A stretch of DNA of 41,638 bases, taken from the UHGV virus genome UHGV-0109010; one strand, given 5' to 3'. The notes below the pieces were generated by a model, which did no database searches, was not told the origin of the DNA, and saw only the letters and a list, made by a program, of their open reading frames with translations. The DNA comes from a virus. This document shows positions 5,076 to 41,638 of the stretch, one piece after another. The number at the start of each line of letters is the position of its first letter. Within the stretch, counting starts at the first letter, position 1. A program made the translations under genes and the position numbers.

Positions 5076-5372
5076 TTATACCTCTGAATCAATATCAACC
5101 TGGTGGTGAGCAATGGTTTCAACCATGTACCGGATGTGTTCTGCCATGCGCTCCTGAAACTCAACATCGTCATCAAACGCACGGGTAATGGCTTTTTTGC
5201 TGGCCCCGTGGCGTTGTAAATGATCGATGCAGAGTGATTCAAACAGGTGCTGGGGCAGACCTTTTTCCATGTCGTCTGCCAGTTCTGCCTCTTTCTCTTC
5301 ACGGGCGAGCTGCTGGTAGTGACGCGCCCAGCTCTGAGCCTCAAGACGATCCTGAATGTAATAAGCGTTCAT
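5076..5372 (-). CDS. gam: Gam, RecBCD inhibitor (98-aa short form)
   Basis: Translation [44 protein letters not shown]... matches lambda GamS. Confidence 0.93.
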
Positions 5373-5448
5373 GGCTGAACTCCTGAAAATGGCTGTGAAA
5401 ATATCGCCCGCGAAATGCCAGGCTGATTAGGAAAACAGGAAAGGGGGG

Positions 5449-5655
5449 TTAGTGATTCAGGCCGTTACCGCGTCCGTCGAGAAAAACTTCCACGAGCAAA
5501 TCACTGGTATAAGTGCGCTCGATGCCGCGATGCAGATAAAGCCGTCCGCGTAAATTAGCTGATGCAGTCCAGGTACCATCTTTGTGTTTGACCAGCATTC
5601 CTGGCATGACCGCGCCGCGATTAACGGTCTGTGTTCCGTAATGTTGATGAACCAT
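5449..5655 (-). CDS. kil: Kil-family host cell-division inhibitor (68 aa)
   Basis: Motifs HxHxGT, TxSAN and VFLDGRG resemble Rac KilR as recalled; SD GGAG 9 nt upstream; first gene downstream of pL. Confidence 0.55.
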   Translation of the reverse strand: MVHQHYGTQTVNRGAVMPGMLVKHKDGTWTASANLRGRLYLHRGIERTYTSDLLVEVFLDGRGNGLNH

Positions 5656-5931
5656 AAAAACTCCGCCCGTAAGCTGGGCTGCTGAACATATAGAGACTTC
5701 TGCGCATATTCAGGCGGTGGATGGCCGCCGGTTGTCATAACTAAGCCGCCTCGTTGAAGCGACTGAGGTATGAAATGTTGAGTTAATTTCAGCTGGTCAC
5801 ACCGACGTTCACGCGTCCGTTTCACCCCTCGCACTCCCCGAAGCCTGCTGAAATTCAAACTGCGGATCTAAGCGGTCATCGCAACGGTGAATCAGGTAGT
5901 TGCCGTATCGTTGTGTTGTTGCGATGAACTT

Positions 5932-5960
5932 ATTTAAAACTATAGTTGTTTTATCGTCAA
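5932..5960 (-). promoter_or_regulatory. pL-like early leftward promoter (minus strand: -35 TTGACG, 17-nt spacer, -10 TTAAAT)
   Basis: Hexamers read on minus strand; architecture and sequence closely mirror pR (TTGACT-17-TAATCT). Confidence 0.55.
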
Positions 5961-5990
5961 CAACAAAAGTTGTTTTATTGGTTGTTTTAG
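5944..5990. promoter_or_regulatory. OL operator cluster: overlapping GTTGTT/AACAAC inverted repeats
   Basis: Palindromes GTTGTT-N8-AACAAC and AACAAC-AAAA-GTTGTT share half-site with OR (ATGGTTGTT...AACAACCAT). Confidence 0.55.
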
Positions 5991-6099
5991 ATATAACTGG
6001 TTGTATTTAGGATGGATTTATTTTGTGACTTGAATCGCATAGCGATAACTGAAGCGAGGTTATGGTGGTTTTTTTAACGGTGTGTGTGATGAGGGGAGG

Positions 6100-6135
6100 G
6101 CAAAAGAAAACCCGGCACGGTGACCGGGATTCTTA
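6100..6135 (-). terminator. Rho-independent terminator downstream of cI (minus strand)
   Basis: Minus strand reads CCCGG-TCACCGTG-CCGGG followed by TTTTCTTTT. Confidence 0.55.
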
Positions 6136-6249
6136 CGCCGTTAGGTAAAGATATTATTGCGGTGGCTTAATATTACTACCTAGAGCAAAGATAGGAATTA
6201 GTTCTTTACTGAATGAGCACAATGCCCAGTTGATAATTTTTAATTGGTA

Positions 6250-6939
6250 CTACCCATGCTTCCTATATGTCTGCGGCATGCTCCCAATAACCTTACCGAA
6301 GATGAACACCCGGTTCATCTCGTCTTTCTCGATCGGGTCCCACGGTGAGTAGCTTTTGTTATCAGAGATGACCAGCAGCTTATCCTTCATCATTTGCAGG
6401 CGCTTTACATGGGCTGTGTCGTCGTACAGAAACGCATAGATACCATCACCGTCGAAAGATTTAACTGTGATATCAACGAACAGCAGATCACCTGGTTCGA
6501 TCGTTCCTGACATGCTGTCACCACGCACGTTAATGATGCGGATATTTTCCGCCTTCCTACCATCGAACATGTGACGAGCATCGTCAAACGAGTACTCAAC
6601 CGAGCGTAGAACTTCTACAAACTCACGGTTGATGACTCCCGGCCCAGCACTGACTTCTATATCAAGAACGTCAATCTTGAAGTATTTGGAATGGCTGACA
6701 GTTGATTGTATTGGTTGCACTGTACTGTCTGACATATTTCCAACGCCAGAAGATAACCATTCTGCGCGCACACCCAAAGCGTTCGCGATCTCCACGATTT
6801 TAGTTGTTTGATTAGCTTTCCCTGTTTCGATTTTCTGAATAGCAGCCTGGCTAACCCCGACCAAATCCCCAAGCGCCTTTTGTGTAAGGCCTCGCGCTAA
6901 TCTGGCTTCTTTAAGTCTTTCTGAGAGTGTTGTTTTCAT
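6250..6939 (-). CDS. cI: CI-type prophage repressor, XRE HTH + S24 LexA-like autopeptidase (229 aa from MKTTLSERL...)
   Basis: N-terminal HTH (LTQKALGDLVGVSQAAIQKIE), C-terminal S24 motifs (GDSM...KRL); divergent from cro across operator region. Confidence 0.85.
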   Translation of the reverse strand: MKTTLSERLKEARLARGLTQKALGDLVGVSQAAIQKIETGKANQTTKIVEIANALGVRAEWLSSGVGNMSDSTVQPIQSTVSHSKYFKIDVLDIEVSAGPGVINREFVEVLRSVEYSFDDARHMFDGRKAENIRIINVRGDSMSGTIEPGDLLFVDITVKSFDGDGIYAFLYDDTAHVKRLQMMKDKLLVISDNKSYSPWDPIEKDEMNRVFIFGKVIGSMPQTYRKHG

Positions 6940-7343: not shown

Positions 7344-7883
7344 ATGCAACCACTTCCATACCAACAGACTAGCGGATTTAGCCCGACTGCGGTGATAAAT
7401 CGTTCTCAAACAAAACAGGTGCCAGGCCACGAAAAAATCCGTGATGCCGTCCGCGCCTGGTCGGCTGTAGATAATCAGGATGTCGTTGCCACACTCATTG
7501 TGAATGAGTATCGGGAGCAGGGCGGCGGCACCATCGATTTCCCTGATGATGTCAGCCGTGCACGCCAGAAGCTGTTCCGCTTCCTCGATAACAAATTCGA
7601 TTCTGAAAAATACCGAAATAACGTGCGTGAACTGACCCCGGCAATTCTGGCGGTACTACCGCTGGAATATCGCGGTTACCTGGTTGAGCAGGATAGCTTC
7701 ATGGCCAGGTTGGCTGAAATGGAAAAGGAACTCAGTGAGGCAAAACAGGCTGTCATTCTCAACGCACCACGCCACCAGAAACTGAAGGAAATTAGTGAAG
7801 GTATTGTATCGATGTTTCGTGTGGACCCAGATCTGGCTGGTCCATTGATGGCGATGGTTACTACCATGCTGGGGGCGATATGA
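7344..7883 (+). CDS. YdaT-family protein in the CII position (putative lysis-lysogeny regulator)
   Basis: 179 aa, SD AAGGAG; position between cro and O; resemblance to Rac YdaT recalled, not verified. Confidence 0.45.
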   Translation: MQPLPYQQTSGFSPTAVINRSQTKQVPGHEKIRDAVRAWSAVDNQDVVATLIVNEYREQGGGTIDFPDDVSRARQKLFRFLDNKFDSEKYRNNVRELTPAILAVLPLEYRGYLVEQDSFMARLAEMEKELSEAKQAVILNAPRHQKLKEISEGIVSMFRVDPDLAGPLMAMVTTMLGAI

Positions 7884-7969
7884 CAGGTTCAGAAATGGCG
7901 AAAGCCGGTCTGCTGGAACAGAACCGACTTTCAGGTGCAAATCGTAACACACTCATTGCGGGAGGAATT

Positions 7970-8899
7970 ATGGCAAACACTGCTGAGATATTCAATTTTC
8001 CAGTGCCGGATGCGGCACAAAAGGAGCCGCGCGTGGCAGATCTCGATGATGGTTATACGCGCATTGCAAATGAGTTGCTGGAAGCTGTGATGCTGGCCGG
8101 ATTAACACAGCACCAGCTTCTGGTCTTCCTGGCTGTCATGCGCAAAACATATGGCTTTAATAAAAAACTGGATTGGGTGAGCAACGAGCAACTGTCCGGA
8201 TTGACCGGGATATTACCGCACAAGTGTTCTGCTGCAAAAAGTGTTCTGGTAAAGCGTGGGATTTTGATTCAGAGCGGGCGGAATATCGGTATTAATAATG
8301 TGGTCAGTGAATGGTCAACATTACCCGAATCAGGTAAGAAAAATAAAGTTTACCTGAAAGAGGTAAATTTACCTGAATCAGGTAAGAAAAGTTTACCCAA
8401 ATCAGGTAAAGGCGTTTACCCGAATCAGGTAAACACAAAAGACAAACTAACAAAAGACAATATAAAACCTTTTTCGTCCGAGAATTCTGGCGAATCCTCT
8501 GACCAACCAGAAAACGATCTTCCTGTGGTGAAACCAGATGCTGCAATTCAGAGCGGCAGCAAGTGGGGGACAGCAGAAGACCTGACCGCCGCAGAGTGGA
8601 TGTTTGACATGGTGAAGACCATCGCACCATCAGCCAGAAAACCGAATTTTGCAGGGTGGGCTAACGATATCCGCCTGATGCGTGAACGTGACGGACGTAA
8701 CCACCGCGACATGTGCGTGCTTTTCCGCTGGGCATGCCAGGACAACTTCTGGTCCGGTAACGTGCTAAGTCCGGCCAAACTCCGCGACAAGTGGACCCAA
8801 CTCGAAATCAACCGTAACAAGCAACAGGCAGGCATGATAGCCAGCAAACCAAAACTCGACCTGACAAACACTGACTGGATTTACGGGGTGGATTTATGA
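7970..8899 (+). CDS. O: Replication initiator O (lambda O-like; alternative in-frame start at 7880)
   Basis: N-terminus MANTAEIFNFPV...VADLDDGYTRIANELLEA...TQHQLLVFLAVMRKTYGFNK parallels lambda O; iterons inside gene; GGAGG SD before 7970. Confidence 0.85.
   Translation: MANTAEIFNFPVPDAAQKEPRVADLDDGYTRIANELLEAVMLAGLTQHQLLVFLAVMRKTYGFNKKLDWVSNEQLSGLTGILPHKCSAAKSVLVKRGILIQSGRNIGINNVVSEWSTLPESGKKNKVYLKEVNLPESGKKSLPKSGKGVYPNQVNTKDKLTKDNIKPFSSENSGESSDQPENDLPVVKPDAAIQSGSKWGTAEDLTAAEWMFDMVKTIAPSARKPNFAGWANDIRLMRERDGRNHRDMCVLFRWACQDNFWSGNVLSPAKLRDKWTQLEINRNKQQAGMIASKPKLDLTNTDWIYGVDL
8321..8476. repeat. Origin of replication: five ~18-bp iterons (TTACCYGAATCAGGTAAR) followed by AT-rich region
   Basis: Direct repeats at 8321, 8350, 8368, 8393, 8415 each with internal dyad TTACC...GGTAA, then A-rich tract; same layout as lambda ori within O. 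Confidence 0.8.
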
Positions 8900-30465: not shown

Positions 30466-30614
30466 CGGCTGAATACCTCACTGATCGCTTCTTTGACTGC
30501 GCCAGTTACTGGCGCATTAATCCTTTCGAATTGCTGAATATGCCGATCAGTGAAATTCCCTTACTGGTCAGTCAGGCAAACAGGATAGAGCAGGAGAAAC
30601 GCACACATGGCTGA
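30432..30614 (+). CDS. Tail assembly chaperone -1 frameshift extension (GT-like), expressed as fusion with 30196..30453
   Basis: ORF in -1 frame overlapping 3' end of the chaperone gene and ending at the tape-measure start. Confidence 0.65.
   Translation: MACGRFFPPGLTAEYLTDRFFDCASYWRINPFELLNMPISEIPLLVSQANRIEQEKRTHG
30447..30453 (+). promoter_or_regulatory. Programmed -1 ribosomal frameshift slippery heptamer T TTT TTC
   Basis: 0-frame codons GGT TTT TTC; -1 frame continues as the 30432..30614 ORF. Confidence 0.65.
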
Positions 30615-32502: not shown

Positions 32503-33831
32503 ATGACGTGGAAAGACAGACTTCAGGACGCGTCATTTCGAGGTGTGCCGTTTAAGGTTGAAGAAGAAAGTGCGGGAACCGGCCGTCGTGTGGAAACACA
32601 CGAATATCCGAACCGCGACAAACCCTATACCGAAGATCTGGGAAAAGTCACTTTCCGCCCGTCCATCACAGCTTATGTGGTGGGAGATGACTGCTTTGAC
32701 CAGCGCGATCGCCTGATTGAAGCGCTGAATAAACCCGGTCCCGGCACGCTTGTCCATCCGACTTACGGTGAGCTGAAAGTCTGTGTTGACGGGGAAGTTC
32801 GGGTCAGCACATCGAAAAGTGAAGGACGTATTGTCCGCTTTGACCTGAAGTTTGTCGAAGCGGGAGAACTCTCTTACCCCACATCAGGTGCGGCGACGGC
32901 GCAGACGCTGATGTCATCCTGTTCTGCACTGGATGACTGCATCAGTGACAGTTTCAGTGGTTTCAGTATCGATGGCGTGGCAGATTTTGTGCAGAACGAC
33001 GTCGTCGGTAATGCCGGCACAATGCTTGGGTATATTTCTGATGCGATGAAAGTGGTGGATTCTGCCGTATCGGATGCCGCCAGGCTGTTGCAGGGGGATA
33101 TCTCGGTACTTCTGCCGCCGCCATCGTCAGGCAAAAATTTCGTTGAGCTGGTGCAGAAAATGTGGCGTACCGGGAAACGCCTTTATGGTAACGCCAGCGA
33201 CCTGGTCACCATGATCAAAACGCTTTCCGGTGTCAGCCTCGGCAGCGATCTGCAACCGCGCGGCGTCTGGAAAACGGACAGTAAAACCACCGCCACGGCG
33301 ACGCAGCAGCGTAACGTGGTTGCCAGCACCCTTCGTACGACCGCAATCAGCGAAGCGGCGTATGCCGTCACCCGATTGCCTGCGCCAACAACTTCCGCGG
33401 TGATGCAGAATGCCGCAGTGGGGCAGGCAACAACACCCGCGCAGAGCACTGGCTGGCCTTCCGTCACGCATCCGGCACTGAACAATGCACCGGCGGTGAA
33501 AAACACGGTTGACCTGCCGACGTGGGAAGAACTGACTGACATTCGCGACACACTGAATACGGCAATTGATAAGGAGTTGTCCCGTACAACCAGCGATGCG
33601 CTGTTTCTGGCGCTGCGCCGGGTGAAAGCAGATCTGAATGCGGATATCAACACGCGCCTTGAACAGTCTGCACGGATCATTCAGCGCACACCGGATGAAG
33701 TTTTACCCGCGCTGGTGCTGGCGGCGACCTGGTTTGATAACGCGGCGCGTGACGCGGACATTATCCGGCGTAATGCCATTACGCATCCCGGCTTTGTGCC
33801 GGTGATCCCTCTGAAGGTGCCAGTGCAATGA
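32503..33831 (+). CDS. DNA circularisation protein N-like (Mu gpN-like) tail/baseplate protein
   Basis: Follows tape measure; SD GGAG; Mu-like order N-P-V-W-J. Confidence 0.7.
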   Translation: MTWKDRLQDASFRGVPFKVEEESAGTGRRVETHEYPNRDKPYTEDLGKVTFRPSITAYVVGDDCFDQRDRLIEALNKPGPGTLVHPTYGELKVCVDGEVRVSTSKSEGRIVRFDLKFVEAGELSYPTSGAATAQTLMSSCSALDDCISDSFSGFSIDGVADFVQNDVVGNAGTMLGYISDAMKVVDSAVSDAARLLQGDISVLLPPPSSGKNFVELVQKMWRTGKRLYGNASDLVTMIKTLSGVSLGSDLQPRGVWKTDSKTTATATQQRNVVASTLRTTAISEAAYAVTRLPAPTTSAVMQNAAVGQATTPAQSTGWPSVTHPALNNAPAVKNTVDLPTWEELTDIRDTLNTAIDKELSRTTSDALFLALRRVKADLNADINTRLEQSARIIQRTPDEVLPALVLAATWFDNAARDADIIRRNAITHPGFVPVIPLKVPVQ

Positions 33832-34907
33832 ACGACAATGTCACGCTACGGGTAAATGGCCGGGAGTGGAATGGCTGGACATCGGTGCGCATCGGTGCCG
33901 GTATTGAACGGCTGGCGCGGGATTTCAGTGTGGAGATCACCCGCCAGTGGCCGGGAGATGAGGGTATCACCACGCTTCAGCCGCGCATTAAAAACGGTTC
34001 AAAAGTGGAAGTGCTGATTGGTGATGAGCTGGTGATCACCGGCTGGGTGGAGGCGACGCCCGTTCGTTACGATTCCCGTTCGGTCAGCACCGGTATTGCC
34101 GGACGTAGTCTGACGGCTGACCTGATTGACTGTGCAGCCGAACCGACACAGTTTAACGGACGCTCGCTGGTGCAGATTGCGCAGGCGCTTGCTGCGCCTT
34201 TCGGCATTGAGGTGGTGAACAGCGGTGCGCCGTCGGGTGTTATTCCTGATGTTCAGCCTGATCACGGTGAAACGGTGATTGAGGTAATCAACAAAATACT
34301 CGGTCAGCAGCAGGCACTGGCTTACGACGACCCGCACGGCAGGCTGGTGATTGGCGGTATTGGCTCAACGCGGGCACATACTGCGCTGGTACTCGGGGAA
34401 AACATCCTTTCCTGCGATACGGAGAAGAGTATCCGGGAGCGGTTTTCTGTTTACCAGGTGGCGGGGCAGCGTGCCGGAAACGACGATGATTTCGGTGAGG
34501 CCACCACCACCGCGCTGCGGGCCCGCACAGAGGACGCATTTATTGCCCGTTACCGTCCGATGTATATCAGGCAGACAGGGCAGGCTACGGGGGCAGGCTG
34601 TATTGCGCGTGCTGACTTTGAAGCCCGGCAACGGGCGGCGCGGACGGATGAAACCACCTATGTGGTGCAGGGCTGGCGACAGGGTAACGGTACGCTGTGG
34701 CAGCCCAACCAGCGGGTGATTGTCTTTGATCCGGTCTGTGGTTTCGACAATACCGAACTGCTTGTTTCGGAAGTCACGTTTACTCAGGACCAGAACGGCA
34801 CCCTGACGGAAATCCGTGTCGGCCCACCTGATGCTTATCTGCCTGAACCCGAAGCCCCCGGCGCGCGGAAAAAGAAAAAAGCCAGAGTACAGGAGGACCC
34901 GTTCTGA
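33828..34907 (+). CDS. Baseplate hub protein (Mu gpP-like)
   Basis: 359 aa, position in Mu-like baseplate block. Confidence 0.75.
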   Translation: MNDNVTLRVNGREWNGWTSVRIGAGIERLARDFSVEITRQWPGDEGITTLQPRIKNGSKVEVLIGDELVITGWVEATPVRYDSRSVSTGIAGRSLTADLIDCAAEPTQFNGRSLVQIAQALAAPFGIEVVNSGAPSGVIPDVQPDHGETVIEVINKILGQQQALAYDDPHGRLVIGGIGSTRAHTALVLGENILSCDTEKSIRERFSVYQVAGQRAGNDDDFGEATTTALRARTEDAFIARYRPMYIRQTGQATGAGCIARADFEARQRAARTDETTYVVQGWRQGNGTLWQPNQRVIVFDPVCGFDNTELLVSEVTFTQDQNGTLTEIRVGPPDAYLPEPEAPGARKKKKARVQEDPF

Positions 34908-35455
34908 TGAGGACGATTGAAGCCATGCAGCGACAACTCCTCGGCCTGATTGGGCGGGCAGTGGTGAAAAGCATCAGTGCCGCCACGAAATGTCAGACCG
35001 TGGATGTGTCCCTGATTGCCGGTGAACCCAAAGCCGGGGTTGAACATCTTGAACCCTACGGTTTTACCGCAAGGGCAAACAGCGGTGCGGAAGCGGTGGT
35101 GTTGTTTCCGGATGGCGACCGTTCTCATGCGGTGGTTGTTACGGTGTCGGACCGGCGCTACCGCCTGAAAGGGCTGCAGACGGGTGAGGTGGCTGTCTAT
35201 GACGATCAGGGGCAGTCTGTGACGCTGACCCGGGAGGGGATCGTGGTGGACGGTGCAGGTAAAACGATCACGTTTCGCAATGCGCCCAGAGCACGTTTTG
35301 AAATGGACCTGGAAGTGACCGGACAGGTGAAAGACCTGTGCGACTCCGGCGGTACCACCATGTCAGCGATGCGGCTTGCCTATAACGGGCATCGTCACAG
35401 AGAGAACGGTCAGGGCAGTAACACCGACAAACCTGATAAAGCGATGGAGGCATGA
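34907..35455 (+). CDS. Baseplate spike / assembly protein V (Mu gp45-like)
   Basis: 182 aa, position. Confidence 0.7.
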   Translation: MRTIEAMQRQLLGLIGRAVVKSISAATKCQTVDVSLIAGEPKAGVEHLEPYGFTARANSGAEAVVLFPDGDRSHAVVVTVSDRRYRLKGLQTGEVAVYDDQGQSVTLTREGIVVDGAGKTITFRNAPRARFEMDLEVTGQVKDLCDSGGTTMSAMRLAYNGHRHRENGQGSNTDKPDKAMEA

Positions 35456-35880
35456 TGGAACTGTGGCTGACGGTGAACGGTAAACGCACCTGCGCCAGCG
35501 CACAGCTGGATCCGCTGACCCGCGCCGTGGTGATTTCCCTGTTTACCTGGCGGCGGGCGGAGCCTGATGACAACGCCGATGTCCCGATGGGATGGTGGGG
35601 GGATACCTGGCCTGCGGTACAGAATGACCGTTACGGCTCCCGACTGTGGCTGCTTCAGCGCAGCAAACTGACCAATCAGCTGGTGCAGACGGTAAGGGGG
35701 TATATCCGCGAATGCCTGCAATGGATGATTGATGACGGCGTGGTGTCCCGTATTGATCTGGATATCCGCCGCACCGGGATTAATGAACTGGGTAACAGTA
35801 TCACTCTCTGGCGTCGTGACGGACCGGTAATGATTTCTTTTGATGATCTGTGGAGTGCGATAACGCATGGCGGACAGTGA
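35452..35880 (+). CDS. Baseplate protein W-like (Mu gp46-like)
   Basis: 142 aa, position. Confidence 0.7.
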   Translation: MMELWLTVNGKRTCASAQLDPLTRAVVISLFTWRRAEPDDNADVPMGWWGDTWPAVQNDRYGSRLWLLQRSKLTNQLVQTVRGYIRECLQWMIDDGVVSRIDLDIRRTGINELGNSITLWRRDGPVMISFDDLWSAITHGGQ

Positions 35881-36925
35881 ATTTCAGCGCCCGACGCTGG
35901 CAGAAAATATCAGTATGCTCCGTAACGATTTATTCGCCAGGCTGGACGTCAGCGACACGCTCCGGCGCATGGATGAAGACGTGCGGGCAAAGGTGTATGC
36001 GGCGGCGCTGCATACGGTTTACGGTTACATCGATTATCTGGCAATGAACATGCTGCCTGACCTGTGCGATGAGTCCTGGCTGGCGCGACATGCTGCGATG
36101 AAACGGTGTCCGCGCAAGGGGGCCACGGCTGCCAGCGGGTATATGCGCTGGGAAGGTGTCAGCGATGGCCTGAAGGTGACCGCCGGGAGTGTTATTCAGC
36201 GCGATGACCTGGTGCAGTACACGACAACTGACGATGCAACCAGCTCCGGTGGTGTCCTGCGCGTGCCGATCACTTGCTCAACTACAGGCGCGGTCGGTAA
36301 CGCTGACGACGGTACGGCATTAATCCTGGTCACGCCGGTGAATGGTCTGCCGTCTTCCGGTGTTGCAGATACCCTGACTGGCGGATTTGATACTGAAGAG
36401 CTGGAAACGTGGCGCGCCCGCGTCATTGAGCGGTATTACTGGACGCCTCAGGGCGGGGCTGACGGGGACTATGTCGTCTGGGCTAAAGAAGTGTCAGGCA
36501 TTACCCGTGCATGGACATACCGCCACTGGATGGGAACGGGGACTGTCGGTGTGATGATTGCCAGCAGTGACCTGATTAATCCCATTCCGGAAGAATCAAC
36601 GGAAACGGCGGCAAGACAACACATTGAGCCACTGGCCCCGGTGGCAGGCTCTGATTTGTATGTATTCAGGCCGGTGGCGCATAAAGTGGATTTTCATATC
36701 CGCGTGACGCCGGACACACCGGAAATACGGGCTGCCATCACCGCGGAGTTGCGTTCGTTCCTGCTGCGTGATGGTTATCCGCAGGGAGAACTGAAGGTAT
36801 CGCGTATCAGTGAGGCGATTTCCGGTGCGAACGGGGAATACAGCCATCAGTTGCTTGCACCGGCAGACAATATCTCCATTGCAAAAAATGAACTGGCGGT
36901 TCTGGGGACGATTTCATGGACGTGA
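35867..36925 (+). CDS. Baseplate J-like protein (Mu gp47-like)
   Basis: 352 aa, position. Confidence 0.75.
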
Positions 36926-37500
36926 CAAACGATGATTACATCCGCCTGTTATCGGCACTGTTGCCGCCCGGTCCTGCATGGTCAGCCAGCGATCCGGCGA
37001 TTGCCGGTGCGGCACCTTCATTAACCCGCGTTCATCAGCGTGCGGATGCCCTGATGCGGGAGCTGGATCCGCGCACCACCACTGAACTGATAAACCGCTG
37101 GGAGCGTCTGTGCGGTCTGCCGGATGAATGTATTCCCGCAGGGACACAGACCCTTCGCCAGCGTCAGCAACGGCTGGATGCGAAGGTTAATCTGGCGGGC
37201 GGCATCAATGAGGATTTTTACCTTGCACAGCTTGCTGCCCTGGGCAGACCAGACGCCACTATCACGCGATACGATAAAAGCACGTTCACCTGCTCATCGG
37301 CCTGTACTGACGCAGTGAATGCGCCGGAATGGCGGTATTACTGGCAGGTCAACATGCCAGCCGCCACCAACACCACCTGGATGACATGTGGCGATCCCTG
37401 TGATTCCGCACTGCGTATCTGGGGCGACACCGTTGTCGAGTGCGTGCTTAACAAACTCTGCCCTTCGCATACCTACGTAATTTTTAAATATCCGGAGTAA
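36916..37500 (+). CDS. Tail protein (Mu gp48-like)
   Basis: 194 aa between baseplate J and tail fibre. Confidence 0.65.
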
Positions 37501-37503
37501 TCC

Positions 37504-38208
37504 ATGCATCGTATAGACACGAAAACCGCGCAGAAGGATAAGTTCGGCGCGGGTAAGAACGGTTTTACCCGTGGTAACCCCCAGACCGGCACACCTGCCA
37601 CCGATCTGGATGATGACTACTTTGACATGTTGCAGGAAGAACTTTGTAGCGTGGTGGAGGCCTCCGGTGCCAGCCTGGAGAAAGGGCGGCATGACCAGAT
37701 GCTTACCGCACTTCGTGCGCTGCTGTTAAGCCGCAAGAATCCGTTTGGCGATATCAAATCGGATGGCACTGTGCAAACGGCTCTCGAAAACCTTAGTTTA
37801 GGAGAAGGCTCAGCATTGCCTGTTGGCGTACCTGTTCCGTGGCCTTCAGTCACACCGCCAACAGGCTGGCTGAAATGCAACGGTGCAGCTTTTTCTGCCG
37901 AAGAGTATCCGGAACTGGCAAAAGTTTATCCGACAAATAAATTGCCAGATTTACGCGGCGAATTCATTCGTGGGTGGGATGATGGAAGAGGAATTGATTC
38001 AGGACGGACTCTCCTGTCTGCTCAGGACGGGAGCATTGAGGCACACGGCCATGATTACAATGGGGCCATCTATACTTCTAGCGGTCCTTCCTGGGCTAAT
38101 ACGACGGATGCGGGACACCGGGCATATTCGGGATTTACATCATCATATGGCGGGAGCGAAACCCGTCCACGAAATATTGCATTTAACTATATCGTGAGGG
38201 CTGCATAA
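37504..38208 (+). CDS. Tail fibre protein (receptor-binding)
   Basis: 234 aa Gly/Ser-rich C-terminal region; followed by tail fibre assembly gene. Confidence 0.7.
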
Positions 38209-38807
38209 TGGATAACGCCGTATTAAATAGCGAGCTTATTGCCACGAAGGCGGGGAATATTACTGTTTATAACTATGATGGTGAGACGCGGGAATATATT
38301 TCTGCATCAACTGAATATCTTGCAGTGGGTGTCGGTATTCCAGCATATTCCTGTTTAGACGCTCCTGGTACATCTAAGGCTGGTTATACAATTTGCCGTT
38401 CTGTGGATTTAAAATCATGGGAATATGTGTCAGACCATCGCGGTGAAATCGTCTATAACACCGAAACGGGAGAATCGAAAGAAATCACAGCTCCGGGTGA
38501 TTATCCTGAAAATACAACCACTATCGCCCCGTTAACGCCATACGATAAATGGGATGGTGAAAAATGGGTGACGGATATCAATGCTCAGCACGTAGCGGAA
38601 GTGGAAGCGGCAGAGCAACAGAAATCTGTGCAGCTTCTGTTCGCAAAGGAAAAGATCATTCTTTGGCAGACTGAATTACAGCTGGGAATTATCAGCGACG
38701 AAGATAAAGAAAAACTAATATCTTGGGTGAACTATATCAAAGCTGTTCAGGCAGTAGATACCCAGAAAGCTCACAATATCATCTGGCCTAAAAAACCATT
38801 CATATAA
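38208..38807 (+). CDS. Tail fibre assembly chaperone (Tfa)
   Basis: 199 aa, position after tail fibre; family assigned from order and size. Confidence 0.75.
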   Translation: MDNAVLNSELIATKAGNITVYNYDGETREYISASTEYLAVGVGIPAYSCLDAPGTSKAGYTICRSVDLKSWEYVSDHRGEIVYNTETGESKEITAPGDYPENTTTIAPLTPYDKWDGEKWVTDINAQHVAEVEAAEQQKSVQLLFAKEKIILWQTELQLGIISDEDKEKLISWVNYIKAVQAVDTQKAHNIIWPKKPFI

Positions 38808-38811
38808 ATAA

Positions 38812-38836
38812 ACGCCCCTTATGGGGCGTATTTTGC
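38812..38836. terminator. Bidirectional rho-independent terminator (ACGCCCC-TTAT-GGGGCGT) shared by tfa and the convergent acyltransferase gene
   Basis: Perfect 7-bp stem flanked by A/T runs on both sides; overlaps the acyltransferase stop codon. Confidence 0.7.
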
Positions 38837-39988
38837 TGCTTGCACGTTATTCTTTGGAAGAATTTTATTTGATAAATAATTGGAAAATTTTATCGCGTTA
38901 TCATCAATTAGCAATTTAAAAATTAAAGCTGCAAGTATTGAAGATAATAAAGTGATTGGGAAAGTAATAAGTAAAGACTTTCCGTATGAAACTCCTGCAT
39001 CACCAAGCTTAATTACGATCAAAGAAGATATTGAAGCTATTAATGGAAAATGCACCAGATAAAGAGAGTATGATACATCTCCAAGAAATTTACAGGTTTT
39101 TGTTTTGAATAAATTTGAGATAACTATTGATTTATCAATTGCTATAATAAGAAACATTGAACCAAAGGCTTGAGAAACAATTCTCAAATCAAAGTAAGTT
39201 ATGTCACTGTTATTTATCCAGATACTATGTTCAGTTATAAAATATGGGTATGAACCTAGGTAACATCCTAGTAAAATAAACATAAAGATAATTGTGGTAT
39301 TAATTTTCTTTATATTAACTGAAACATCTGCACAAATCACCCCTAATATAAATCCTATTAGATGACTTGAGCTAAATACCACAATACCTAAAGTATAAAA
39401 AGCAAACCTAATTCTGGTAGTGCAAACTAGTGGGACCAGAACGAGTACAAGAATTGAGCCAACCAATTCGGTGTGAATGGTCCATAATACTGGGTTTAAT
39501 GTTTGAACTCCGTAAAAATATGTACCAATACCCCCTTCCCATACCGCATTCAGTAATGTCATTGTAGTTGGCATCGCTGGGATTACTTGTGATAAAGAGT
39601 ACACTGCAGTTTCTGATGAATGAAATCCAATCGTTGTCATCAGAATAAAGGAAAATATAGTAGATGCAATGGTAGGTATTGCAAGACGTGGGTATCTCTT
39701 GATAATGGATTTAGAGTACCATTCTAGCCCCTTCCCTTTGAAAAAGGGAATCGATAGAACCATTCCACTCAAAACGAAGAAAAGCATTACGGCAAAGTGA
39801 CCATTATATAATATATTAAATGGAGTTTCACTTATGTATTTCTCTCCATAATGATCTATCTGATTTTGAACAAAAACAGATGGTAGAAAGAATTGCATGA
39901 AATGGCTTATTAAAACTATCAAGCAAGCTATACCACGAATACCATCCAGTGCGTGATCTCGGGAAGGCGTCGTTAATTGTTGAACCAT
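38819..39988 (-). CDS. Acyltransferase family 3 integral membrane protein (O-antigen/LPS O-acetyltransferase-like), start at MVQQL with SD GAGGA
   Basis: Multi-TM protein with N-terminal LDGIRGIACLIVLISHF motif typical of acyltransferase-3 (Oac-like); very AT-rich; convergent at prophage right end. Confidence 0.8.
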   Translation of the reverse strand: MVQQLTTPSRDHALDGIRGIACLIVLISHFMQFFLPSVFVQNQIDHYGEKYISETPFNILYNGHFAVMLFFVLSGMVLSIPFFKGKGLEWYSKSIIKRYPRLAIPTIASTIFSFILMTTIGFHSSETAVYSLSQVIPAMPTTMTLLNAVWEGGIGTYFYGVQTLNPVLWTIHTELVGSILVLVLVPLVCTTRIRFAFYTLGIVVFSSSHLIGFILGVICADVSVNIKKINTTIIFMFILLGCYLGSYPYFITEHSIWINNSDITYFDLRIVSQAFGSMFLIIAIDKSIVISNLFKTKTCKFLGDVSYSLYLVHFPLIASISSLIVIKLGDAGVSYGKSLLITFPITLLSSILAALIFKLLIDDNAIKFSNYLSNKILPKNNVQAAKYAP

Positions 39989-40230
39989 CAATTCCTCACA
40001 CATTGTAATAAAGTATTAAAATAAAATAGTAAAAGCAGAATATACAAATACGAAAAGCGGAATTATACTTTACAAGAGTGCTTGATGCTATTGTTTTGTC
40101 GAGATTTATAATCTGATCTTCTGTAGATGTTGTCCTGGCATTGTCCAATCATGATCTATGGGCTGGCTGGCGAACTTTCGATAGTGCGAGTATTGAATGA
40201 TTTCCAGCCGTTACCGATTTTACGTGTTAA

Positions 40231-40479
40231 TTAGTGAACAAACCACTCGTCAGCAGATTCCCAGGTATCTTTCAGAGTCTCCTGAACAAAAGTTTTTGCA
40301 GAATCCTTATCTGCGGTGCGTGTAACAGAAAGGCCATCGTTGCTGGTGGCTTTTACGATCACCTCTACATCGTCATAACGTTTACTGATGCGTCGGGTTA
40401 ATTCTTCCTTTAACGCATCCACAGCACCGGTTGGCATTTTAGTCATTTTTTCTTTGGCTATGCAGATTTCAATACGCAT
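40231..40479 (-). CDS. DinI-family DNA-damage-inducible protein (82 aa)
   Basis: [11 protein letters not shown]...[11 protein letters not shown] matches DinI family N- and C-terminal motifs; two LexA boxes upstream. Confidence 0.85.
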
Positions 40480-40492
40480 AAAAGTCCCTCTA

Positions 40493-40540
40493 TACTGTGT
40501 TTGTATACAGTATTATTTTTAACTGTATGGATAAACAGTG
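40493..40540 (-). promoter_or_regulatory. Two LexA (SOS) boxes CTGT-N8-ACAG (40493-40512 and 40522-40539) overlapping a TTGACA-17-TAAAAA promoter for the dinI-like gene
   Basis: TACTGTGTTTGTATACAGTA and ACTGTATGGATAAACAGT fit the E. coli LexA consensus; -35 TTGACA on minus strand at 40539-40544. Confidence 0.8.
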
Positions 40541-41638
40541 TCAAGAGGTCTTATTTCTGCTCCTTTGGAGCTCTTCAAAACGATTATGTAAAGATTTCGG
40601 ATACAGTTCGGTATATACCTGCCATAGCACGTTTAATGAACGATGCCCTGTAACCTGGGCGACTTCCTCAATACTAAAACCAGCCTCAAATAAGCGACTT
40701 GCCCCTTCTCTACGCAAATCATGGTATCGCAGATCTTTAATACCTAATTTGCTTCTTACCCTCTGGAATCCCGCAGTAACAGAAGTGCTGTTATATGGAA
40801 AAATGAATTCTGATTTTTTGGGTTGTCGTTGGACGATATCCCAGGCTTCCCCAAGCAAGGCTACTTTCATATGGTTGCCTTCCTTTTTACGTGGATCTTT
40901 CCTGTCTCTTACGAGTATGGATTTTTGTTCCTGATCGAGATCCTCCCATCGTAATCGGCATACTTCACCGATTCGCATACATGACCACACAGAAAATTTG
41001 AGGATATCAACGAACGGAATTTTTGAGCATTTATGTGTAGATCGTTGTTGAAGACCTTCAATGAGCATGTCCAGTTCATCAGATGCCGGTCTACGATTAC
41101 GACGATTTGATTTACCAATTAAACCAAGTTTAAGTAGATATGGACGAGCGGCTTTTGCTGGGTTTGATGTGTAATTAATTCCATATACAGGTTTGGCAGC
41201 ATCCAGAACACTACCAAGATAACTAACATCGTGGCTAACTGTAGCTGGACCTGCACCAGCGTTGTTTCTTAGCCTGCAATGTTCAATTACGTCATTTTCT
41301 GTCAGTTCAGATAGTTTGATCGCGGAGATGTCACTATCCATAAGCAGTTCCAGCACATATCTTTTAGTACGGCCTGCTTTACCTCCGGCATTTGGGTCAT
41401 TTAAATATTTGTGTAGTAAGTCACGGACTGTAAGTCCGTCAACTGCATTTGATGATGGAATGCCATATAGATCTAATTCCATCACTTTCTGTGTGCCCCA
41501 TGTTTTGGCATGAGCATGTTTAGGGAATGTTTTGCTTTCCCTGTAAGTGATAACACCTTTTTCTTTGATAATCACATTACAGCGATAGCGTGGTGTGCCA
41601 TCGGATTTTAGTCGTTTCTCTATGTTATAGTACGCCAT
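40541..41638 (-). CDS. Second tyrosine-family site-specific integrase (365 aa; start codon at the very last bases of the window)
   Basis: C-terminal catalytic region with RxxG and HDLRR motifs and a Tyr-containing tail; upstream context not visible. Confidence 0.7.
   Translation of the reverse strand: MAYYNIEKRLKSDGTPRYRCNVIIKEKGVITYRESKTFPKHAHAKTWGTQKVMELDLYGIPSSNAVDGLTVRDLLHKYLNDPNAGGKAGRTKRYVLELLMDSDISAIKLSELTENDVIEHCRLRNNAGAGPATVSHDVSYLGSVLDAAKPVYGINYTSNPAKAARPYLLKLGLIGKSNRRNRRPASDELDMLIEGLQQRSTHKCSKIPFVDILKFSVWSCMRIGEVCRLRWEDLDQEQKSILVRDRKDPRKKEGNHMKVALLGEAWDIVQRQPKKSEFIFPYNSTSVTAGFQRVRSKLGIKDLRYHDLRREGASRLFEAGFSIEEVAQVTGHRSLNVLWQVYTELYPKSLHNRFEELQRSRNKTS

Follow-up and report, generated by a model that had tools for sequence, protein, structure and literature searches.

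The serotype-converting phages SfV and SfII carry their cargo genes behind the tail fibre assembly gene tfa and before the integrase gene. In SfV, the short tail fibre gene and tfa are followed by a terminator, the convergently transcribed genes gtrV-gtrB-gtrA, int and xis, and SfII shows the order tfa, terminator, a convergent gene for an 'acyltransferase family protein' (349 aa, PF01757), an insertion sequence (IS) element, gtrII-gtrB-gtrA and int. SfII is reported to carry gtrII together with oacD, which codes for a 6-O-acetylase of N-acetylglucosamine (GlcNAc), and a serotype-converting role is reported for this locus (PMC8973906). Because the convergent gene (SfII_25) is the sole acyltransferase-3 (AT3) gene between 15.5 and 26.0 kb of SfII, the part that we examined, we infer that it represents oacD. 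Related arrangements are found in two phages of other types: in the P22-like podovirus Sf6, the tailspike gene is followed by a terminator, the convergent oac gene and int, and in the E. coli phage phiV10, which is of the epsilon15 type, an oac gene with 31% G+C and the tail fibre gene converge on a gap of 12 bp, and oac is annotated as acetylating the O157 O-antigen and providing superinfection immunity. Here, we report on a gene in the corresponding position of the virus genome UHGV-0109010, of which we analysed 41,638 nt (referred to as the window; all coordinates are window positions unless another locus is named). It codes for a membrane acyltransferase consisting of an AT3 domain only, and we consider it probable that it is a gene for lysogenic conversion, whose product would use cytoplasmic acetyl-CoA to acylate a surface glycan of the host, most probably the O-antigen, and would thereby alter an epitope and a phage receptor.

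The acyltransferase gene occupies the cargo slot of SfV-type phages

The core of the locus consists of the following features:

37504–38208, plus strand: tail fibre gene with a collar domain, boundaries within it from blastn
38208–38807, plus strand: tail fibre assembly gene tfa (Caudo_TAP, E 3e-32)
38812–38829, both strands: two-way hairpin resembling an intrinsic terminator and common to tfa and the acyltransferase gene (terminator scan and folding)
38819–39988, minus strand: gene for an AT3-only membrane acyltransferase of 389 aa (PF01757 match, PHROG 3333, motifs and AlphaFold2 model)

The tail genes preceding the locus are nearly identical to those of the SfV family. Between positions 30600 and 37808, which cover the tape measure, the DNA circularisation protein, the baseplate and the N-terminal part of the fibre, the window is 97.7–97.8% identical to SfV, SfI and SfII, and a match of 97.7% to SfIV is limited to 32515–37807. 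According to blastn, the similarity to SfV and SfII stops at 37807 within the fibre gene. The N-terminal part of the fibre up to this position is common to these phages, and the tip, starting from 37729, is common to other prophages carrying the acyltransferase gene. Because of the near-identical tail backbone and the gene order known from SfV and SfII, we assign the acyltransferase gene to the same slot as the known O-antigen-modifying cargo of these phages.

The comparison with each of the described systems shows how far the correspondence goes. With SfV, the window shares a 97.8% identical backbone and the succession of tfa, terminator, convergent cargo and int, but the cargo of SfV is the three-gene glucosylation system gtrA-gtrB-gtrV and contains no acyltransferase. 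The likeness to SfII (about 97.7% identity in the tail and baseplate genes) extends to the kind of cargo, as both carry an AT3 gene which converges on tfa from its 3' side, is separated from it by a terminator and precedes int. In contrast to SfII, the window contains neither gtr genes nor an IS element, carries a dinI gene and codes for an integrase which targets dusA instead of the SfII site. Sf6 exhibits the same layout as the window, and its Oac, the archetype of phage O-antigen O-acetyltransferases with this architecture, is also an AT3-only protein whose R-X10-H, FFxxSG and RXXR motifs align with those of the window protein, but it is shorter (333 vs. 389 aa) and belongs to a phage with a tailspike. 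The oac gene of phiV10 resembles the window gene in coding for an AT3-only enzyme, in its low G+C content and in facing the tail fibre gene across a very short gap, but it is located away from the integrase gene. Neither the type of the acyltransferase gene nor its location is unexpected. The original prediction, made from the letters of the DNA, had likened its position next to the tail fibre genes to that of serotype-converting phages, which applies to SfV and SfII as well as to Sf6 and phiV10. It had also proposed a possible moron, and the gene indeed shows the features of one, namely a foreign base composition, an opposite orientation, its own terminator and its absence from sibling prophages.

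Gene boundaries, base composition and selection

The longest open reading frame (ORF) on the minus strand extends uninterrupted over 38819–40003 and codes for 394 aa from an ATG at 40003. A start at the ATG at 39988, resulting in 389 aa, appears likelier because a GAGGA sequence is present 5 nt upstream, the identical locus is annotated in this way in RefSeq and the closest homologues likewise consist of 389 aa. The gene had initially been placed at 38808–40003; it is real, but bases 38808–38818 are intergenic, and the coding sequence probably begins 15 nt further inside.

The gene proved to be as AT-rich as first described, with a G+C content of 33.3% (26% at third codon positions) vs. 48.6% for the whole window and values of 0.56–0.60 for the tail genes in 400-bp windows (about 58%). 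It is convergent with tfa, which is encoded on the plus strand, and only 11 bp separate the two stop codons. The shared bidirectional terminator postulated at this site was recovered as the hairpin ACGCCCCTTATGGGGCGT, which forms a 7-bp stem with 6 G-C pairs and is accompanied by U-rich runs on each strand. It folds with −14.9 kcal/mol (z −3.2) on one strand and with −15.4 kcal/mol (z −3.1) on the other, and none of 200 shuffled sequences was as stable. The hairpin covers the final three codons and the stop codon of the acyltransferase gene. A comparison with an 81%-identical homologue yielded a dN of 0.11, a dS of 1.02 and a dN/dS ratio of 0.11. Therefore, the gene is under purifying selection and does not represent a chance ORF.

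Protein family, conserved motifs and fold

The deduced protein matches the Pfam family Acyl_transf_3 (PF01757) with 95 bits against a cut-off of 31 (E 6e-27), aligning residues 17–361 with positions 2–323 of the 326 positions of the profile, and it also matches PHROG 3333, 'O-acetyltransferase' (E 1.8e-26). We analysed motif conservation in an alignment of 70 sequences, comprising the window protein and 69 homologues, and use the residue numbers of the 389-aa protein. Invariant positions include R18 and H29, which form an R-X10-H motif in helix 1, F70, F71, S74 and G75 of the sequence FFVLSG (70–75) in helix 2, where L73 is kept in at least 90% of the sequences, and the RXXR motif R98-Y-P-R101 at the cytoplasmic end of helix 3. 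Residues W169, T170, E174, S306, Y310, H313 and D362 are likewise invariant. Motifs of the types R/K-X10-H, FFxISG and RXXR are found in or common to characterised AT3 carbohydrate acetyltransferases, and OafA and Oac require the equivalent residues for their function (PMC7448272). Modelling studies indicate that these motifs line a pore able to admit acetyl-CoA, with its thioester beside the histidine (PMC9833829).

The AlphaFold2 model of the protein is all-helical and confident (pLDDT 92.6, pTM 0.91). Searching the PDB by fold produced high-probability matches only with chains 8vli_B and 8vlu_B of HGSNAT, a human acetyl-CoA-dependent transmembrane acetyltransferase (probability 0.95–0.96, TM-score 0.43–0.45), and further HGSNAT chains matched at lower scores. 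This agrees with the unification of such proteins in a TmAT superfamily, as proposed in PMC12423673. A search of solved structures by sequence gave no match, and the viral fold search in BFVD returned one unnamed match. Thus, the assignment as a multi-transmembrane acyltransferase-3 gene stands, with all hallmark motifs intact.

A single Pfam domain was recognised in the 389 aa, and an SGNH domain, a linker or an 11th helix are missing. Lacking an SGNH domain, for which its length would not suffice, the protein belongs to the AT3-only enzymes like Oac and falls outside the fused class represented by OafA, OafB and OatA. This architecture also bears on the proposal that the enzyme may be a peptidoglycan O-acetyltransferase similar to OatA or may acylate secreted small molecules, as do NodX or the macrolide acyltransferases. 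Distant homologues are in fact annotated as 'peptidoglycan/LPS O-acetylase OafA/YrhL', which we take to be a generic orthologous-group name. AT3 proteins are also known to acylate Nod factors and antibiotics (PMC9558356). However, OatA-type enzymes are AT3-SGNH fusions (PMC7448272), whereas the window protein shows PF01757 only, and no gene for an SGNH partner is adjacent. Moreover, Gram-negative bacteria O-acetylate their peptidoglycan by means of PatA/PatB, an MBOAT/SGNH pair (PMC7448272, PMC12148441), and no biosynthetic cluster is present nearby. We regard either of these activities as very improbable.

Relatives of the acyltransferase

Beyond the E. coli cluster, homologues were found at 81%, 69% and 57% identity, after which the values fall to about 40%. 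In other prophages with contractile tails, the genes for the 81%- and 69%-identical proteins lie at the end of the tail module and face a Caudo_TAP gene convergently. The homologues of about 40% identity, from Pseudomonas and a metagenome contig, are chromosomal, and their neighbourhoods are uninformative. A tblastn search of 50,697 phage records detected no close relative, and neither Oac of Sf6, Oac of phiV10 nor the AT3 protein of SfII was among the matches. The closest relative in GenBank phages is an uncharacterised acyltransferase of Pantoea phage PA-1 (E 2e-29), which aligns along the full length with 29% identity. Its gene likewise lies between those for a tailspike and an integrase, but has the orientation of the tail genes. 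Among viral contigs of IMG/VR with relatives of 26–36% identity, a gene for a fibre, a tailspike or Tfa adjoins the AT3 gene in 7 of the 9 inspected loci, a count which takes in one locus (L104) where the fibre gene adjoins a second, tandem AT3 gene. This locus (1704–4113 of L104) contains two different AT3 genes in tandem, convergent to a gene for a 787-aa tail fibre, with a holin gene on the opposite side. Scanning species-representative genomes with the single protein found no relatives, and a profile scan of these genomes found only relatives of 22–37% identity in diverse phyla. No paper on the acyltransferase was retrieved by a literature search with the protein accession.

None of the close homologues is a peptidoglycan enzyme or another characterised enzyme acting on a substrate other than lipopolysaccharide (LPS), and the homology result named as refuting the original prediction was therefore not obtained. 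We rejected an orthology to OpgC/MdoC, the succinyltransferase of periplasmic glucans (NF003014 with 16.4 bits vs. a cut-off of 338; BLASTP E 0.017) and to WecH, the O-acetyltransferase of enterobacterial common antigen (ECA; BLASTP E 0.27). Searching for known components of anti-phage defence systems with PADLOC yielded no match. Because all known enzymes are distant, none of the characterised ones exceeding 22–29% identity, the window protein belongs to an AT3 clade without a characterised member.

Host O-antigens and the probable acceptor

To relate the gene to the surface glycans of its hosts, we read the galF-gnd clusters in five carrier genomes (L175, L176, L180, L182 and L185), which fall into four types:

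WP4-S18-ESBL-09: O1-family cluster
2018-10-1CC: O154-family cluster
TL20: O10-family cluster
C1 and 52F4: one common, unnamed cluster, whose Wzx and Wzy are 42% and 28% identical to those of O1

The genes rfbBDAC for dTDP-L-rhamnose synthesis are present in all four cluster types. Since rfbD occurs in 42% of complete genomes, the chance expectation for this result would be about 0.03 (0.42^4) if the O-types were independent. The link to rhamnose fits either a rhamnose-containing acceptor or an effect of the host range of the carrier phages and is suggestive only. In Shigella, enzymes of the Oac type transfer acetyl groups to rhamnose or GlcNAc (PMC9558356). As another common host feature we considered wecB (ManNAc, N-acetylmannosamine), which is present in three of the four clusters and fails in the O10 host. 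A specificity for one O serogroup was rejected, as the near-identical gene occurs with four O-antigen clusters. The six near-identical genomes with the prophage at dusA include a strain of sequence type ST648 and a strain with the O1 cluster, which may or may not be one and the same.

Several observations weigh against an O-antigen acetylase that is expressed in lysogens and protects them. The rhamnose association is drawn from four O-types and uncorrected for phylogeny, and since a gene with at least 99.8% identity occurs alongside four O-clusters, its target may be something other than the O-antigen. Tail fibres of the Mu and e14 types usually bind the LPS core or outer-membrane proteins and not the O-antigen, and masking of its own receptor by the phage is therefore no more than a possibility. 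In BLASTP comparisons, Oac of Sf6 shows 22% identity to the window protein over 206 aligned positions (E 0.002), Oac of phiV10 gives a weak local match (E 0.016), neither of which indicates orthology, and the AT3 protein of SfII shows no detectable pairwise similarity (E 1.1). The protein had been called O-antigen acetylase-like, which holds for the AT3 family and its motifs, but does not extend to orthology with Oac or OafA (at most 22% identity), and its substrate is therefore deduced from the context alone. Furthermore, a promoter scan of the minus strand between 40004 and 40230 detected no consensus sigma-70 site, and DNA of 33% G+C is of the kind usually silenced by H-NS, which makes expression in a lysogen less certain.

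Acylation of a different envelope glycan, following the same logic of receptor masking, would accommodate some of these points. The LPS outer core, ECA, a K capsule, colanic acid or periplasmic glucans may serve as acceptors in this case, and the same allele in hosts with four O-antigen clusters as well as the Mu/e14-type class of the adjoining fibre, whose receptors are often found in the LPS core, would be readily explained. AT3-only enzymes act on many glycans, such as WecH on ECA, OpgC on periplasmic glucans and IcaC on poly-N-acetylglucosamine (PMC9558356). On the other hand, the window protein is orthologous to neither OpgC nor WecH, all characterised genes which related phages carry in this slot serve to modify the O-antigen, and the rhamnose pathway is present in all host O-clusters. 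We consider another envelope glycan as the target to be the main alternative, but rather unlikely.

We favour a functional conversion enzyme with the O-antigen as the probable acceptor, an interpretation supported by the conserved motifs, the fold, the purifying selection, the homology of the slot, the fibre-adjoining relatives, the behaviour as cargo and the rhamnose genes in four of four O-clusters. O-antigen acetylation by the acyltransferase is a well-supported inference in our analysis. Following the established model for AT3 proteins, a bundle of roughly ten helices would form a pore admitting cytoplasmic acetyl-CoA, in which Arg18 and R98xxR101 may hold the phosphates of CoA and His29 may be located beside the thioester. 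At the periplasmic face, a hydroxyl group on a sugar of an envelope glycan would receive the acyl group, and the most likely acceptor would be undecaprenyl-linked or nascent LPS O-antigen. The changed surface epitope and the masked receptor would lead to the exclusion of the same phage and of other glycan-binding phages, and possibly to a shift of the serotype.

Cassette boundaries and distribution of the gene

Comparing the window with two sibling prophages, one of which (L003) shares the tail genes and the other (L187 from E. coli YZ22PE68) the dinI-int-dusA arm with 99.7% identity, delimited the following segment:

38615–40160: replacement segment of low G+C content (33.8%; blastn against L003 and L187, sibling annotation)

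In L003, the respective interval (5114–6427 of that locus) contains the remainder of tfa, a second tfa gene in inverted orientation, an alternative fibre tip and the remnant of a Pin-type invertase, and in L187, with its lambda-like tail (Lom, Stf), it contains a single inverted tfa gene and a recombinase. Because the window differs from both siblings at 38615–40160, we conclude that the acyltransferase cassette replaced a Pin-invertible host-range switch. Without the invertible segment, the prophage is restricted to one fibre type. The presence of the dinI-int-dusA arm on a lambda-like tail in L187 also means that the right arm is common to unrelated phage backbones.

The last approximately 190 nt of tfa (38615–38807) are linked to the acyltransferase gene. 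The similarity to the Pin-type siblings ends at 38614, the locus of the 81%-identical homologue (L004) aligns from 38647, and the matches of a widespread segment of fibre tip and tfa in other genomes end at about 38577–38621. The idea that the fibre tip and the acyltransferase are inherited strictly as a pair was weakened, because many prophages without the gene contain both the tip and the initial two-thirds of tfa at 92–97% identity.

Of 5,426 complete E. coli genomes, 11 contain the acyltransferase gene and 728 the same integrase; about 99% of the prophages with this integrase are without the acyltransferase. The copies are at least 99.4% identical, with at least 99.8% nucleotide identity for the gene itself, and occupy four chromosomal contexts:

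Context 1: the prophage at dusA, in six genomes
Context 2: a different prophage with a Mu-like tail beside yciI/tonB/ompW, with a truncated integrase
Context 3: a prophage with a DUF2612-type baseplate, in strains C1 and TL20
Context 4: a remnant at argW (tRNA-Arg) in strain 52F4 (8568–11977 of L183), containing only the 3' end of the fibre gene, tfa, the acyltransferase gene and intS

The remnant in strain 52F4 suggests that the acyltransferase gene is kept while the phage decays. At the same site, the element CPS-53 of strain K-12 carries the gtr-type genes yfdG-yfdH-yfdI in the position which the acyltransferase gene takes between intS and tfa in 52F4, but the products of yfdGHI act in glucosylation via bactoprenol-glucose, in contrast to the direct acyl transfer by an AT3 enzyme. 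Since the three copies without dinI (L002, L183 and L186) share the block up to 40223, about 235 bp of upstream sequence always travel with the gene.

Upstream region, dinI and integrase

The region between the acyltransferase gene and the right end of the window contains the following features:

39989–40223, minus strand: upstream region and presumed promoter (at least 99.4% identity with L002, L183 and L186 up to 40223)
40231–40479, minus strand: dinI-like gene (PF06183, E 1e-19)
40495–40510 and 40523–40538: two perfect LexA boxes, CTGT-N8-ACAG (pattern search)
40541–41638, minus strand: tyrosine integrase gene (PF00589)

The upstream region contains a perfect TATAAT at 40067–40062 with a poor −35 sequence, and the GAGGA before the gene is a good Shine-Dalgarno sequence. 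The upstream regions of the homologues revealed no conserved promoter, and none of them was alignable. No terminator was predicted between dinI and the acyltransferase gene (40004–40230), where only weak folding and no U-run were observed. The LexA boxes overlap a promoter-like site of dinI with a TTGACA at 40544 on the minus strand. Because a dinI gene with LexA boxes is located upstream on the same strand and no terminator lies in between, SOS-induced read-through into the acyltransferase gene is possible; for their expression, the copies without dinI have only the region upstream of the gene itself.

Similar neighbours were observed with some of the relatives. Perfect LexA boxes are present upstream of the genes for the 69%-identical (L006, box region 7777–8000) and the 57%-identical homologue (L007, 1–40), in L006 beside a divergent S24-peptidase gene, and a UmuD-like gene (L106, 2062–2481) is located upstream of a 26%-identical relative. 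These LexA, UmuD and S24 neighbourhoods may simply represent SOS-regulated cargo typical of prophage ends.

The properties of the upstream region also concern the question whether the gene might be a passenger that is silent or in decay, i.e. horizontally acquired AT-rich DNA that is unexpressed or without effect in its hosts. The missing consensus promoter, the G+C content of 33% and the rarity of the gene (11 of 5,426 genomes) are consistent with such a passenger, but the ORF is intact with all catalytic motifs present, its dN/dS of 0.11 was obtained over a dS of about 1, an allele of at least 99.8% identity is maintained in four contexts including the tfa-AT3-int remnant, and a perfect TATAAT and a good Shine-Dalgarno sequence precede it. 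Taken together, we consider a mere passenger unlikely, and an active conversion gene remains our preferred interpretation.

In an identical genome (L001), int is followed by dusA, pspG and qorA. The end of the window at 41638 coincides with the start codon of the integrase, and dusA starts 89 bp beyond it in the identical genome. The acyltransferase gene is therefore located near the right end of the prophage, as originally stated, but does not form the end itself, as dinI and the integrase gene intervene before the dusA attachment side. RefSeq additionally lists a 72-bp pseudogene fragment of a 'capsid protein' at 40163–40234. This label looks spurious because 40161–40230 corresponds to the spacer after pin in sibling prophages.

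Implications

Combining these observations into one scenario leads to a more speculative proposal, to which we give only limited credence. In this scenario, the mobile unit would consist of the 3' end of tfa together with the acyltransferase gene, which would have moved between unrelated fibre loci by recombination within tfa and displaced the Pin switch. It would have founded an AT3 clade acting on a rhamnose-containing motif of O-antigens (O1, O10, O154 and one unnamed) and would thus convert several serogroups, possibly boosted by SOS read-through from dinI, and it would be retained after decay of the prophage.

At the level of the locus, one prophage slot swaps unrelated surface-modifying cargo, namely gtr genes, two different AT3 genes and a Pin switch, on a near-identical tail. 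If the enzyme acylates a surface glycan, as we consider probable, the antigenicity and phage susceptibility of clinical E. coli lineages would be altered, with consequences for typing schemes based on the O-antigen, for glycoconjugate vaccines and for phage therapy. Moreover, an AT3 clade without a characterised member would gain a first function.

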